Part shown: one piece after another, positions 45,615 through 58,065 of the stretch
How the letters are laid out: every line of letters starts with the position of its first letter
How positions within the stretch are numbered: position 1 is the first letter of the stretch
Source of the DNA: Xylographa opegraphella
Taxonomy: Eukaryota
Length of the DNA stretch: 64,000 nucleotides
Direction: 5' to 3'
Assembly: GCA_022813865.1 (NCBI GenBank)
Contig: JALDZX010000067.1
Span: 1-64,000 of the forward strand
The notes under the pieces: generated by a model
Told to the model about the DNA's origin: nothing
Database searches by the model: none
What the model saw: only the letters and a program-made list of their open reading frames with translations
Program-made: the position numbers and the translations under genes

Positions 45615-46794
45615 ATGGCCATCTCACGATCCCTACGGCGCACGAATCCTATCACGCTGGTTCTTGCTACCTTATTAGTGATTGGTTTCTTCTTTTTCGT
45701 GTTCTCTCCTTCGTCGAACGCAGCCCCCACCACTCTTCCGAAGGCGAAACATAACTCGCCAGCTTCCAACCCGCTGTCGCCTCCCACAGCACCGTTCAGG
45801 AAAGAGATACTTCAGTCGAATGGTAGACGAGTTCCACCTCCGGTGGTTCATTACAAGCTAAATAACCTGACCACCTCGACGGACCCTGTTGCCAACCAAG
45901 AAACTGTCCTGATCCTCACACCTCTTGCTCGTTTTTACCAAGAATACTGGGACAATCTACTCGCTCTTTCATATCCACATCATCTTATCGCCCTTGGATT
46001 TATAACGCCCAAGAATAAGGAGGGCAATGCCGCGACAGCCGCACTTCAAGAAGCCATCACGAAGACTCAATCAGGACCCGAAGCAAAACGATTCGCCAGC
46101 ATAACAGTTCTTCGGCAAGACTTCGATCCCCCTCTACAATCACAAGAAGAAACCGAGCGTCACAAGATGGAAAATCAGAAAGCTCGTCGGGCTTCTATGT
46201 CACGGGCTCGGAATTCCCTGCTATTCACAACCCTAGGCCCATCGACAGCGTGGGTATTATGGCTGGACTCGGACATAACCGAGACTCCGCATACGCTTAT
46301 ACAAGATCTGGCAGCACATGACAAGCCGATCATAGTCCCGAATTGCTTCCAACGTTACAACGTAGTCGATGGGGGGAGTGCTATCCGGCCTTACGACTAC
46401 AACTCCTGGCAAGATAGCCAAGTGGCACTGGATATAGCGAACAGTATGGGCCCTGATGATATACTTCTGGAAGGATATGAGAACATGGCAACATATCGGA
46501 CGTTGATGGCGATGCTTGCCGACAACTCTCCTTTACGAGACCAGAGTAGGATTATACCATTGGATGGAGTTGGTGGAACTGCTCTGATGGTCAAGGCCGA
46601 GGTTCACCGGGATGGGGCTATGTTCCCCCCGTTTGCATTCTATCATTTGATTGAGACGGAAGGTTTTGCTAAAATGGCAAGGAGGTTGGGGTGGGGTTGT
46701 TGGGGTTTGCCCAACTATTTCGTGAGTATATTGTCTCATGACATGATACAATGAAGCTGACGCAGGATGCCAGGTGTACCATTATAACGAATAG
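45615..46794 (+). CDS. MNN9: Mannan polymerase subunit Mnn9 (Anp1/GT62 family)
   Basis: Type II TM anchor; VLILTPL, ARNSLLFTTLGP, WVLWLDSD, YDYNSW, LDGVGG and IETEGFAKMA motifs; last exon VYHYNE after intron 46722-46773. Confidence 0.93.
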
Positions 46795-47916
46795 AAATGT
46801 ACTTCTATGGCGGAACAGTTCTCTAAAATCGGTGATCTGACAGATTTTGGCAACCGATCTATGGTGGTGGACTTTAGCGCATATGCATTTGGGCGGCGTT
46901 GAGAAAATATGGTATACATGGTTAAGGTTACAATTGTCCATGTGCAGTCGAGGATTATTGACCAACCTTTAAAAGGCCGCAGATTGGCCAGTCGTGGCTA
47001 CTCCCGCACGCCTGGATGTCGCAGTAAAATTTGGGAAGGGGATCAATGTTCTGGAGTCAGACGTGTCCCTGAAAATACCATCTATATTGCTATAGTATAC
47101 ATCTCCCAGAACCTCAACATATTGGCTCTGAGCTTGATCATTCCCCTTGCGGTTCAGGTTGGTCTAACTTCCATAATTGGAAACATACTCATTGTATCGG
47201 TGGTTTGCTGCTCATGTTGAAAGGTGCGAAGTACGTCTCTTATTATCTCTCTGATAGATACCGCTACGCGGAACACACTCTACTTCCCTATCCATCGAAG
47301 CGGTCACGAATCTACCGCCGACACCACCTACCTCATTCTTGACCTCAACTTGAACAACTGTCACTTCGGTTTTGCGGGCCCCCCTCGAAGTGACTACTAT
47401 CAAAGAAGGGCAAGCTGCTTGAGCAGCACCAAGTCCTCTCGCTACATTGACTCAGATACTCATGTACATACGTCCTGGAAAACCACAGCTCGAGCTTTTA
47501 GATGCTATTCTTAGCTCAGTGGAGCTTCCCTAAGCTGTCGAAGGCACATGTCAAATGAGCTGTCAGTATAATTTAGTCATTTTACATGATGGGATATGGA
47601 GTGGTGTTGCAGTATTTCGCAAAAGCTCCGGGCAAGGCACAATCTGTTGGTTTCTCCTAGACGTCCGGTTCCAAGTAGATGAATAATGCTGGCGTTACGT
47701 ATGGACCGCTACGCCTGCTGGTGAGGTCGTGATGAGAGGTATAGATGTCTGACGAATAATGCACAAAGATATAGAATTACAGTCAATGCTTGCCACGATC
47801 TGGCCCTCGATCCCATATGTGGAGCTCAGCGGCCCAAGGCCCCTAGCCGACAGTCAGCCCTGGCGGCTACTTCACTGTTAGCGCATGCTCAAATTCTCCA
47901 TCGACGAATTCTAGTT

Positions 47917-48273
47917 TGTTGAAGATATTATATATCATGATACGCTGTGCCCAAATAATCCTTTTAACAGGTTATGGACCCGGCTTAGCGCACTCGTTCA
48001 CACTTTCGATTTTAAACCCGAATTTGCTAAATATAAGCGAGTATCGTAGGAACGGTCGCAACAAATCGAGTTCGCTCGTTGATAATCACTATTGCGGGGG
48101 TATTTTTCTCCCTGCCTCGGGGTCTCGGCTATTTCCGCAGACCCCCCGACTAGGGCCCTCGCAATAGCAACAGACAGCCATGCATAGAAAATACATGATC
48201 TATAATCTGGGCGAGTGTTGAAGATGTTATATAATATATCATGATACGCTGTGCCCAAATAATCCTTTTAACA
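47917..48273 (+). mobile_element. Miniature non-autonomous Ty1/copia-type LTR retrotransposon (TRIM/SMART-like), 357 bp
   Basis: Direct repeats 47917-47969 and 48216-48273, both TGTTGAAG...CTTTTAACA; 5-bp TSD TAGTT (47912-47916, 48274-48278); PBS-like GGTTATGGACCC right after the 5' LTR; purine tract GGGCGAG right before the 3' LTR. Confidence 0.88.
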
Positions 48274-48281
48274 TAGTTACT

Positions 48282-49651
48282 ATGACCCACCTACAACTTG
48301 TACATGTACAAGTTTATGTAGCCACTCGTGGCACCTTGATCACCAATTTGAAGTTTTTTATCAACGTCGAGGTGAATTTTTTCTTAAGAATCCAGTTCTC
48401 TTTTGTAGCCAAATCTTTTGCCTGGGTTGTGAATATTGATTTTACCGTTACACTTCAAGAAGCTGAACTTGCACGATATATTTATTTTAATACATTCATT
48501 TATATTCCTTGAAATGCGACAAAACAGCACTTGGATCTCGAACAAAGCTCGATAAATGGCATTATTCAGTATCATTTCGCATTGCGCGACGATTCGCCCG
48601 CAAATGATTTCAGTGAGATGCAAAACAGAAAAGGCTGCCGATTTTTGTTTATTTCTACTTCTTTTGATCTATCAACGAAAGCAATGATTGTTAATAACAT
48701 TGTCGTAACTAATGCGCCGGTTTTTCTACATTATTACCTCGAATATTTTTCAATTGACGTCGCAGGCTTTTTCCACCGGCTGCGCTTCATGGTCTCAATA
48801 GGGAAATTGTCACACCCCTTTTAAATGACGATCTGCGAGATCGAAACAAAAACAACTGAATATTACATTGAAATCCCCCGCCGGTCAATGCGCTACCTGG
48901 TCCCGTTGTTTATGTCAAATTGACGAAATGTCAGAACGTAATATTCACAGGCTTCACCGATATCGAGTACTTCATGTTTTACCCTTCGATACAAAATATG
49001 CATGGGACGATTCTGTCATCAGTACATGACTGGACCAAAGTCTCGCTTCGGTTTAATAACGATACTGCAAAGCTTGACTCTGTTCTATTCAACGGCAATA
49101 AAAGAATTGGCAACATTGACACCTCGTTCTCGAACCTTTTCGATTCATAGAACAATTCGTTGATGTTTAAGTTAACTGTTGAAGCAAGGCGATCCTAGGT
49201 GGCTGAGCCCCAGCCCCCCCCCCCCCCCTCCAGGGAGGGGGGCCACCTATATTATAGTGGACCACCCCCATAGACTTCATAGATCAATGAACTCACGTTA
49301 TACACTTCAACACTAACACCATCTGGCAGTAATCGATTGCACGTTTTTGTTTCACTGGACCCATTTAATCCGCTCTGCTCAGCCTGCCCGGTAGCCGAAG
49401 CACCCGATTTACCAAAATTCACCGACTGGACAACGGCGAATGGTAAAGTAGAAGCTCTGGATGCAAGTATTTACTGTCAGATACTAATAGCAAGCATGAT
49501 TAACGCCGATAATATGCGAGGCTCTTCGGTACCACCAGCGTCGACCAAATTTTCTGGTAAATGAGCGTTTTTAGCAACGAACTTTTATGGTCCAGTGTTC
49601 GCCTCACCGTTGAAATAAACTCCTCAAATGCACGACGCAGCTCTTGATGCC
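48282..49651 (+). pseudogene. Degraded (RIP-like) 5' exons of an unknown multi-exon gene, probably contiguous with the 49757-51124 ORF
   Basis: ORFs 48282-48512 and 48531-48824 are in frame across a TGA; further stops at 48857, 48869 and 49148; AT-rich; intron-like signals such as CTAAC...CAG ending at 49329. Confidence 0.55.
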
Positions 49652-51124
49652 GTACGTAATAGTGTAACGATGGTCGTGGCTGCCGTGGAAACCCAAATAC
49701 AGATGCAAAGCCGCGCAAGTAAAGCCGCCGAAAAGGTTGTAAAGGCTTAAGCACAGGTGCAATCTGCATTAACAACGAATTCGCTTGAACAACCAGCGGC
49801 TTTAGCCGGAGCACTTGCGAAGTTTCAAATAACAGAGACACAATTGAAGTCGATCAAGCAACAAGAGGCCATACTCGTAAAGGCAGTAAAATCAGCAAAA
49901 GCAAGAGCAACAACAGCAATAACCTTAAACCGGGCACGCTGGACGATTTCAGCCGACAGTTTCCAGTCTGGATATGAACCAGTCAACATCCTTGATGGCG
50001 ATCCTCAAAAAATGTGGCATACACAATGGGATCCATCGAATACACCACTGGCACACATTGTTACCATTGATATGCAAAAGCCATACCTGGTAAAAGGCTT
50101 GATTTATCTGCCACGCCAAGATGGGCATTCCAACGGCTATTTCGGACAGTTCTCGGTTGAAGCAAATACTGATGGCAAAATCTGGCCTGCGCCTGTGGCC
50201 AGCGGTACATGGCCAAGCGATGCCACCCTCGAAGCAGCCTCTCAAGCACGTGCTTCAGCCCAGGCTGCCGCTCAGGCTCAAGCCGCGAAAAAAGCCCTCG
50301 AAAAACAAGCTGCAGCGCGAGGTGTTGCAGCACAAGAAGCATCATCGAGAGCCCGCGCTAGCCAAGCCGAAGCAATCGCCCAGGCCATGGTGCGAGCCCA
50401 TGCCGTACAAGAAGCAGCAGCGAGTCCATTTATCGGCTTCATTGACGCAGCAACGTACGGCCCTAGAGACGTCACGCCACGTGTGAAAGAGCTTCACATG
50501 CAATGGATCAGCGAAACGGCGAACCTTGGCAAGCCCGTCTCCTTTACCATCGGCAACGACACGCTAAAAGGCGATCCTACCCCGGGCATGGCCAAATCCT
50601 GTGCTGTGCTCTACCGCCGTTGCCACAAGAACGACCCCGTCAACACATGCAAAGCACTCACCCTCTTTGCAGCAGAGAATCAGCCTATCACCTACGATCC
50701 AAACGCATTCGACGACAGCGCAGCTGATCATGAAGCTGACTTCCGCACCGCTGCCCTTCTCCGTGGCGGGCACGTCGTCGGCGCCGTCGAGATGGCCACG
50801 TACGACCCCAAAGACGTCACGGCAATCGTGCAAGATCTGTTCGCGTACGGTGTGGCGTCGCCCGAGCTAGCAGCCGCGGCGTCTCGGCAAGCCGATGCCG
50901 CCGCACACATGCGGAGCATGCTTGCGCGGGGCCTGGCCGTCAGGGAGACGGGAGCGCCGTTTGCGTTCACGGTCGCGAATGATGTATTTATGGGGGATCC
51001 GGCGCCTGGGAGCCCCAAGTCGTGCGAGGTGCTGTTCCGGAAATACGAGGCTGGGAGTCCCGTGGCGACGAGTGCGTACGTGGTGCTGAAAGCGCCGGAG
51101 GGAGCGAGGATTGTGTTTGCGTAG
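49628..51124 (+). CDS. F5/8-type C (CBM32, C-terminally truncated) + Ala/Gln-rich helix + 2 SUEL/DUF3395-like lectin repeats
   Basis: RARWTISADS..NILDGD...WHT..TIDM...YLPRQDG resembles the galactose-oxidase CBM32; repeats ATYGPRDVT...NDTLKGDPTPGMAKSCAVLY and ATYDPKDVT...NDVFMGDPAPGSPKSCEVLF; possible ATG at 49628 with intron 49652-49756. Confidence 0.65.
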
Positions 51125-55638: not shown

Positions 55639-58065
55639 ATGTCGTCTCCTGCTACAGCCGCAGGTGTAGCTGCACCGCTTGCTCAAGGTGAGCAGAATTT
55701 GCCATTGCAGGCATGGCGTATTGCCCGCTGATATGAATCCGAAGGCGCTGGCTATGGCGTTATCATTGGGATCGGTGCCCTCTTCGCTTTTGGCATGTGG
55801 GCTATCGCTGTGCTACTTGCCAAATTCCAGAATGAGGTTCAGGGCAGTGAGATGTTCATGACGGCGAAGAGGTCTATTGGTACCGGACTTGTGGCCTCTG
55901 CTGTTGTTTCTGGCTGGACAATCGCAGCGACGTTGCTGACTTCCAGCTCTTGGACATACTCCTACGGCGTCAGTGGAGCATATTATTATGGAGCTGGCGC
56001 CAGTGTTCAAATCTTCGTCTTTGCAGTCGGCGCTATTGAACTGAAAAGGCGTGCACCCAGTGCACACACTTTCCTCGAGATCTCCAGGATTAGATATGGC
56101 CGAGCAGGACATTGGGTCCAGATTGGATATTCGACGCTCCTTCAAATCATCAATTGAATGTCTCGTCGTCACTTGCTGGATGATAAGCTAATGCTGGCTT
56201 TGCAGGCGTGAACATACTGGTCGGCGGTTCCGCGGTATTCACAGCCCTTACCGGCATGAACGATCTTGCGGCTGTATGGCTTCTACCGGTGGGAGTAGTC
56301 ATATACACGTTGACTGGAGGGATCAAAGCCACTATCCTTACGGATTACGTCCATACAATAATCATATATGTCATGATCCTGACCGGTCTTTTTGTTGTGT
56401 ACTGCAGGAGCAATCTCATCGGTAGTCCCGGTGTAATGTACGACTTGTTGAGAGCTGCAGCTCAGCGGGCTCCTGTACCTGGCAACTCCGGAGGAGAGTA
56501 TCTCACCATGAGCAGCCAAAGCGGCATTCTGCTGGGCGTGGTCTTCTGGTGCGCTGTCTTTGGAAGCACGGTCGACGTCCAGCTCTTTCAGAAGGCAATT
56601 GCTGCCAATCCTGCTAGCACTCTTCCTGGTAAGCCTTCGATTCCTTCGCCTCTTAAGATTCTGCTAAGTTGGCGTAGGCTATATGATCGGTGGCCTAGCC
56701 TGGTTCGCCATTCCGTTTTGCCTCGCAACAACGTTCGGCCTTGCAGCTCGCGCTCTAGAGACGAATCCATCGTTTCCCACATATCCCAGGCTAATGACAA
56801 CTGTCGAGGTCAGTCAGGGTCTCCCTTTCCCGTACGCCGCTCAGGCTCTTATGGGTAAGGGGGGCTCCTTCTTCGTACTCCTCATGACTTTTATGGCTTG
56901 CACTTCGGGCTTTTCTGCGGATATTGTGGCCGTAGCAAGTGTGTTCACCTATGATATTTACGGTGCATATATCAATCCTAATGCTTCGGGCGGGAGACTG
57001 TTGAAGATGTCCCATATCGCAGTTGTTGTGTGGAGTGTCTGCATGGCAGTCATTGCCACCGGTATCACGAGGACAACTATAGGGTTTGTATCTCCCAGCG
57101 TCTCCTACATTTCCGAAAAGCAAGACTCACGATTTTAGTGTCAATTACTTGGTTACTTGTATGGGTAAGAATCTCCATCGGCATTTGCCACCGCTATCCA
57201 AACGCTTAATCGTTCTTTTCTCCAGGTGTATTCACCTGCTCCATGGTTTTCCCAATGGTACGTACCTAGCCAATCAACCCTGCTTTCCATCCAACCAAAC
57301 CCCCTTGTTATAGTACAGCACCATCCTCTGGCGCCGCCAGAACCGCGTAGCCATCATCGTAGCACCCATAGCTGGCAGCCTCACCGCCATCGCGTGCTGG
57401 CTCCTATCCGCCAAAGCGCTCGAAGGCAGCATCACGATCGACACGACCTCGGCGATCCTGCCTCTAGCCATCGGCAACGGAACCAGCCTGGCATGCGGCA
57501 TACTATACTCCATCATCTGTTCATACGCGTTCGGGCCCGAAGATTTCGACTGGGAACGCTTCAAGACGGTCCGGGTCGTGGACGACAGCGACGTGCAAGG
57601 TGTGTCCAAGGAGCAATTGGAGCAGCAGCTCAAGAGGGAGCTGTTGTCGCCGGAGGAGGAGCGGCGCTTGCGACGCGGCAAGAAGCAGGGCATCGTGCTG
57701 GCGGCGGTGGGTTGAGCTCTCTCCAAACTGTCTTAGGCCGACTGCTGATCCGCTCCCGCGTCCAGGTGCTATGCGCTATTTTCGTGGTCCTGTGGCCGCT
57801 GCCGATGTATGGCACGCGGTACATCTTTTCGCCGGGCTTCTTCGTCGGCTGGGTGGTTGTCACCTTCATGATTGCGTGGGCGGCCAGCCTGGTGATTGTG
57901 CTTATGCCGATCTGGCAGGGGAGACATACTCTGATGGTTATCTGGAAGTACATTATAGGCTCGGGAGTGAAGGGGCGGAGAGGCGGAGAGAAGCGCTCGG
58001 TGGAGATGTGGAGTGAAGGTTCGAAGACAGAGCCGGCAGGGGAAGAGACTGGGAAGAAGGCGTAG
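55639..58065 (+). CDS. Sodium:solute symporter family urea/polyamine transporter (DUR3-like)
   Basis: PLAQGAGYGVIIGIG, EMFMTAKRSIGTGLVASAVVS, ELKRRAPSAHTFLE, GGIKATILTDYVHT, GGLAWFAIPF and WPLPMYG motifs; about 7 introns, one apparently GA-AG. Confidence 0.92.

Follow-up and report, generated by a model that had tools for sequence, protein, structure and literature searches.

Introduction

Classical plant TRIMs carry terminal repeats of roughly 100–250 bp and occur as multi-copy families. Copia of Drosophila and Ty5 of yeast are autonomous and have LTRs of a few hundred bases. In both of the latter, the anticodon stem-loop region of the initiator tRNA-Met primes reverse transcription, and not the 3′ end of the tRNA (cited in PMC10886601). 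According to the definition given in the same paper, a TRIM is shorter than 1000 bp, encodes no protein, is bounded by two LTRs, and has a primer site and a polypurine tract at the ends of its interior (PMC10886601).

In fungi, 113 TRIM families termed Helenus have been described from rust fungi, plus some in Agaricomycetes (Kojima, 2024; PMC10886601). An earlier reading of the present locus, made from its letters alone (hereafter the sequence-only reading), had placed most of the described TRIM and SMART elements in plants and animals, a view that these 113 fungal families render out of date. As reported there, fungal TRIMs produce 5-bp duplications; the primer that most of them use, the anticodon loop of the initiator tRNA-Met, is shared with Copia; and they are attributed to Copia helpers, with some families surviving only as solo LTRs (PMC10886601). 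In its Data S1, the interiors begin with ggttatgagccc (48 occurrences) or, at the same position, with ggttatgggccc (two occurrences, both from Hemileia) and likewise end in short G-rich runs, and the octamer tgttgaag occurs nine times, mostly at LTR starts (PMC10886601).

The smallest described forms are the SMARTs of grasses, whose authors call them the smallest LTR element and whose solo LTRs average about 77–85 bp (Gao et al., 2012, PMC3281118; also PMC10886601). For filamentous ascomycetes, a Copia survey gives usual LTR lengths of 100–500 bp and a search minimum of 100 bp (PMC5445492), and the annotation pipelines of several ascomycete genome papers list TRIMs. A narrow literature search, which included parts of PMC3601003, returned no statement on LTRs under 60 bp, and no record is claimed here.

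Genomic Setting and Structure of the Element

The window, that is, the whole 64-kb stretch of DNA that was analyzed, is an ordinary gene-rich ascomycete stretch. Pfam families identified in it (16 ORFs scanned) comprise Anp1, carboxylesterase, NAD kinase, CFEM, GH72, short-chain dehydrogenase, amine oxidase, and F5/8 type C. Judged by its sequence, the host is a lichen-forming Lecanoromycete. The element is located in an intergenic gap of about 3 kb, with the Anp1 gene (ending at 46751) on one side and the gene encoding an F5/8 type C protein (from about 49751) on the other, and eight small ORFs of the flanking intergenic DNA have no significant Pfam match.

Two side observations concern the neighboring genes. 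The Anp1/Mnn9-type mannosyltransferase (45615–46751, + strand) is 84% identical to a protein of Lambiella insularis and 77–78% identical to proteins of Ptychographa, Varicellaria, Icmadophila, and Trapelia, which are lichen fungi of the Ostropomycetidae; these are its closest named relatives, and they are the basis for assigning the host to the Lecanoromycetes. In the ORF at 49751–51121 (+ strand), the F5/8 type C region is followed, by eye, by an Ala/Gln-rich stretch and then by two similar C-terminal segments with no family assignment.

The features of the element are as follows; X1 denotes the run whose contigs are treated below.

47912–47916, no strand: left copy of the target-site duplication TAGTT, identical to 48274–48278
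47917–47969, + strand: 5′ LTR, 53 bp, TGTTGAAG...TTTTAACA; supported by sequence, repeat finder, and shuffles; X1 contigs match 47916/7/8–47953/4 and 47924–47969 with different flanks
47970–47984, + strand: putative primer-binding site of the initiator-tRNA anticodon-loop type; GGTTATGGACCC (47970–47981) is certain, and the next GGC is a possible extension
47970–48215, + strand: internal region, 246 bp, non-coding; overlapping ORFs without a Pfam family, no Rfam family near threshold
48089–48167, + strand: stable imperfect hairpin of 79 nt within the interior, from folding compared with shuffles
48209–48215, + strand: polypurine-tract-like, G-rich GGGCGAG abutting the 3′ LTR; from sequence, weak by itself
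48216–48273, + strand: 3′ LTR, 58 bp, with one A/G change and a 5-nt indel relative to the 5′ LTR
48274–48278, no strand: right copy of the target-site duplication TAGTT, from sequence

The limits of the two LTRs were obtained by reading the sequence and with a repeat finder. Both direct repeats have TGTTGAAG at the start and TTTTAACA at the end, which gives them TGTT...AACA termini, and they share an exact core of 40 bp (47930–47969, identical to 48234–48273). The repeat finder aligned the pair over 45 nt at 98% and, in the head, over 18 nt at 94%; by eye, the A/G change is found at 47927 (A) versus 48226 (G), and the indel is of an ATATA type within an AT-rich stretch. In the 64-kb window, a 36-nt segment of the LTR core is found two times, and none of 100 dinucleotide shuffles gave two or more matches. 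Direct reading of the 5′ LTR also reveals an AT-rich run that is TATA-like and another run that is AATAA-like. The exact 5-bp duplication TAGTT lies directly 5′ of the first LTR and directly 3′ of the second, and the element measures 357 bp without it. The sequence-only reading had claimed LTRs of 53 and 58 bp, a 40-bp core, the TAGTT duplication, the motifs flanking the interior, and a length of 357 bp, all of which matched to the base.

As far as sequence can tell, the element is a genuine Ty1/copia-style non-autonomous LTR element. It is also a TRIM in the structural sense of the definition cited above: it measures 357 bp, encodes no protein, has two LTRs, and carries a putative primer site at one end of its interior and a polypurine-tract-like sequence at the other. 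Two of its features, the duplication of 5 bp and the putative primer site of the anticodon-loop initiator-tRNA type, are associated with Ty1/copia, where they are usual without being confined to that superfamily.

A comparable arrangement might arise without retrotransposition, either through a local duplication or where two short dispersed repeats bracket 246 bp of host DNA; the 53-bp unit is found alone elsewhere (see below), so that two such units could in principle be neighbors. However, TAGTT is located outside both units, as one integration predicts, and not around each of them. This is the arrangement made by a single integration event and not by repeat extension. In addition, the 12-nt primer motif lies exactly at the edge of one repeat and the G-rich tract exactly at the edge of the other. 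We consider it very improbable that the locus is something other than a retroelement insertion.

Primer Site, Coding Capacity, and RNA Structure

The 12-mer GGTTATGGACCC that abuts the 5′ LTR was compared with the motif variants of the sequence-only reading and agrees with GGTTATGGGCCC at 11 of 12 positions and with GGTTATGAGCCC at 10 of 12. Set against the interior starts of fungal TRIMs, it matches ggttatgagccc at 10 and ggttatgggccc at 11 of 12 positions. By our own arithmetic, the chance that a random 12-mer falls within one mismatch of the motif is about 2 in a million per site. A copia/Ty5-type primer site had been claimed from the sequence; the type of motif and its position against the 5′ LTR are borne out, whereas the fit to the very motif then proposed is imperfect (11/12 and 10/12). 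At the opposite end of the interior, GGGCGAG is only 7 nt long, and one C interrupts its purine run.

Neither of the two overlapping ORFs (106 and 89 aa) matched a Pfam family, and Pfam found no retroelement domain among the 16 window ORFs scanned, which upholds the earlier statement that no gag/pol remnant is present. Being non-coding, the element depends on proteins supplied in trans.

RNA families were searched for as well. ARAGORN identified no tRNA genes in the window, and Rfam returned nothing at gathering score across the same stretch. A permissive Rfam search (E up to 10) of 47700–48500 yielded three chance-level rows, with no tRNA and no 5S; a hammerhead match, which would mark a retrozyme, was likewise absent from 47700–48500 at E up to 10. 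By ARAGORN and Rfam, the tRNA-like or 5S-like Pol III module of Helenus and TRIMp3 is absent from the LTR.

Folded as RNA, the whole interior is somewhat more stable than its shuffles (z −2.52). Most of this excess comes from the hairpin at 48089–48167 (−41.8 kcal/mol, z −5.43), which none of 200 shuffles equaled in stability and whose stem reappears in the fold of the whole interior. The hairpin fits no Rfam family; it may be a packaging signal, a dimerization signal, a small-RNA precursor, or an accident of the sequence.

Comparison With Described Elements

Among the described systems, the fungal Helenus families, as presented in PMC10886601, share with this element the lack of coding sequence, TG..CA LTRs, the primer type following the 5′ LTR, a G-rich end of the interior, and a 5-bp duplication. 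They also resemble it in a size of a few hundred bases (311–1263 bp in Helenus), in that many families consist of solo LTRs, and in that some of their LTRs open with tgttgaag, as those of this element do (PMC10886601). What defines Helenus, however, is a tRNA-like Pol III module within the LTR (PMC10886601), and none was found in this element, which is therefore not a Helenus. Further differences are that the one small LTR length given for Helenus is 120 bp, compared with 53/58 bp here; that the Helenus hosts are Basidiomycota (Pucciniales and a few Agaricomycetes), whereas the present host is a Lecanoromycete ascomycete; and that the primer site departs from theirs by 1–2 bases, with the motifs compared by eye (PMC10886601).

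Similar to this element, the grass SMARTs, including FRetro129, are very small (292 bp) and non-autonomous, and Gao et al. (2012, PMC3281118) attribute them to a Copia helper. That study also reports a TATA box in the LTR with no clear polyadenylation signal, locations near genes, and solo LTRs, all of which have a counterpart here (PMC3281118). In contrast, SMARTs form a plant element family with hundreds of copies; in a comparison of sizes only, their LTRs of about 82–85 bp are longer than those described here, and their total length is 292 bp versus 357 bp (PMC3281118).

The element differs from classical TRIMs, which are multi-copy, in that its complete form is single-copy. With copia and Ty5 it would share the anticodon-region type of priming and the Copia superfamily, but those elements are autonomous and this one is without genes.

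Copies of the LTR and of the Interior

Among public sequencing runs, X1 was the one listed as containing the locus, and no RNA run was listed for it. Other copies were sought in the contigs of run X1, which comprise 30.6 million letters and hold 95% of the sampled words of 47700–48500; X1 is probably the window's own source and hence not an independent sample. At a threshold of at least 80% likeness, 15 records aligned to the stretch, and the contig details given here are from the eight listed. Four of these eight represent the locus itself, namely, its left flank to 47945, a contig of the 40-bp core, a 324-bp contig (47940–48263), and the right flank. The core contig has a depth of 303, about twice the single-copy depth at the locus (139–167); bearing in mind that contig depth is not a copy number, this corresponds to about two copies, which are accounted for by the element's own two LTRs. 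Every bin of the interior (47970–48215) is at depth 138.9, contributed by the single 324-bp contig only.

The remaining listed contigs carry the LTR in other surroundings. An 83-kb contig at single-copy depth (163) has an internal match to 47916–47953 with two differences, and an 11.5-kb contig (depth 167) matches 47924–47969 with one difference and a 1-base gap and diverges exactly past the last base of the LTR. A 762-bp contig (depth 3777) matches 47917–47954 with four differences, and a 149-bp contig (depth 2849) matches 47918–47954 with two. The latter two are at 17–23 times the single-copy depth and join the LTR-like unit to further sequence; they may represent a larger element with the same short LTR, another repeat into which a solo LTR has inserted, or an rDNA spacer. 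In the bin 47916–47942, about 6,880 of a summed depth of 8,478 comes from the listed records, so that about 1,600, or about ten single-copy equivalents as a rough guide, would fall to the other seven records.

The sequence-only reading had raised the question of whether any other copy exists, and as regards the LTR the answer is positive, since its first approximately 38 nt or its 3′ end are present in at least four X1 contigs that do not derive from the locus and have unrelated flanks. The loose ends upstream of 47916/7/8 are unlike one another (agreement of a three-record consensus only 0.62, plus two further distinct sequences), and those past 47953/4 consist of a diverged LTR tail with an AACA or ATCA end, followed by unrelated sequence. 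The contigs, in part, thus reveal a unit of about 52–58 bp that has the same two ends in several contexts and is a dispersed repeat. Because the unit is bounded alike in these contexts, being short characterizes the family and is not peculiar to this copy. Among the X1 matches listed, the primer-site motif followed none of the three readable 3′ boundaries of other LTRs, so those copies look like solo or 3′ LTRs.

These dispersed units might be solo LTRs and siblings of the element itself, that is, traces of a true multi-copy TRIM family in which the miniature was repeatedly mobilized in trans. Several LTR units at single-copy depth with different flanks, and six further X1 records that are at least 99% alike to part of the stretch, are compatible with such a family, and fungal TRIM families are reported often to persist mainly as solo LTRs (PMC10886601). 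Against it, the depth of the core contig is already explained by the two LTRs of this element, and the 30.6 million contig letters yielded, at at least 80% likeness, neither a second miniature copy nor a full-length element with the same leader. Several complete copies at different sites, by which a mobile TRIM family is recognized, were thus not found within the X1 contigs at at least 80%, and the earlier claim of a mobilized TRIM family is not supported by an interior that is covered at this threshold by one single-copy contig only. We judge a multi-copy family of the miniature unlikely. An autonomous copia or other helper sharing the termini and primer site was not found in the X1 contigs aligned.

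Searches of other collections gave no further copies. Two other runs of the same study (X2 and X3) yielded no records, although this does not prove that the element is missing from them. In a metagenome scan, 20 nt of the LTR core had one match, with flanks unrelated to the LTR, which was dismissed as a chance hit. Three matches in a scan of viral contigs with the LTR head, the LTR tail, and the primer site were also attributed to chance, given their phage-like coding and unrelated interiors; a 19-mer of the LTR core had no match in the viral contigs. Contigs of prokaryote genomes returned 0 and 0 matches, as expected for a fungal element. No further copy of the element is present in the 64-kb window, where the best non-self match is of 19 nt (56992–57010, E about 0.2). 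This stretch is similar to the sequence where the G-rich tract meets the head of the 3′ LTR (12 nt exact), lies among long ORFs, and is probably a chance resemblance.

Origin and Age of the Insertion

The explanation that we favor, with somewhat better than even confidence, is a single insertion of a non-coding miniature Ty1/copia-type element that was already miniature when it integrated and that belongs to a family with truly short LTRs. In such a cycle, transcription would start inside the 5′ LTR, and the RNA would be packaged by the Gag of a copia-type helper. A fragment of the initiator tRNA-Met, its anticodon stem-loop paired to 47970–47981/84, would prime reverse transcription, as the motif suggests; plus-strand synthesis would proceed from the G-rich tract at 48209–48215; and the helper integrase would insert the cDNA, yielding the 5-bp TAGTT duplication that is observed. 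In an LTR of 53 bp, R and U5 together would be limited to a few to perhaps 25 nt. That such an LTR would leave very little room for U3, R, and U5 counts against this explanation.

Alternatively, a full-length copia element with short LTRs, inserted at TAGTT, may have shrunk by deletion in place to an interior of 246 bp, in which case the miniature itself never moved. The interior is single-copy in run X1, the LTRs and the primer site show some decay, and the occurrence of the LTR family elsewhere makes a full-size parent plausible, all of which would suit such a relic. If the parent family survived, however, a match to its leader would be expected from 47970 on, and at a likeness of at least 80% no sequence other than the locus itself aligned to that part in run X1; for 246 bp this is not decisive. 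Only cis elements have been kept (primer site, G-rich tract, and hairpin) and no coding scrap, an outcome that is commoner in elements selected for mobilization and is again not decisive. Deletion in place is possible but appears somewhat unlikely, and integration as a miniature is more likely.

The substitution and the indel between the LTRs, together with the imperfect primer site, suggest that the insertion took place some time ago, but a date cannot be derived from a single substitution in 53 bp.

Beyond the single insertion, the short unit could belong to a whole lineage of lichen fungi elements in which a functional LTR of about 52–58 bp, shorter than any met with in the literature consulted, has its promoter, R, and U5 compressed, and in which larger, perhaps autonomous members exist at some 20–40 copies. 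That number derives from the two contigs at 17–23 times single-copy depth in which the LTR unit is joined to further repeated sequence. We put forward this lineage only tentatively and regard it as unlikely on present evidence.

Implications

As a single old intergenic insertion, the element has no evident consequence for the host. It adds to the known fungal TRIM-like, Copia-dependent elements and is remarkable mainly for its 53/58-bp LTRs and its host group. It shows that terminal repeats of only 53–58 bp can enclose a complete LTR element; these are below the 100-bp floor used in the fungal Copia survey (PMC5445492) and below the SMART LTRs of about 85 bp (PMC3281118). If larger members use the same LTR, it would define how little sequence an LTR requires for promoter function, strand transfer, and recognition by integrase, and the element class would be under-counted in fungal repeat annotation. 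If the short-LTR lineage is true, LTR finders with a 100-bp minimum, such as that stated in PMC5445492, would miss the whole lineage. With this element, the pattern of a 5-bp duplication and anticodon-loop initiator-tRNA priming, so far published for TRIMs of rust fungi and a few mushrooms, would reach a lichenized ascomycete.
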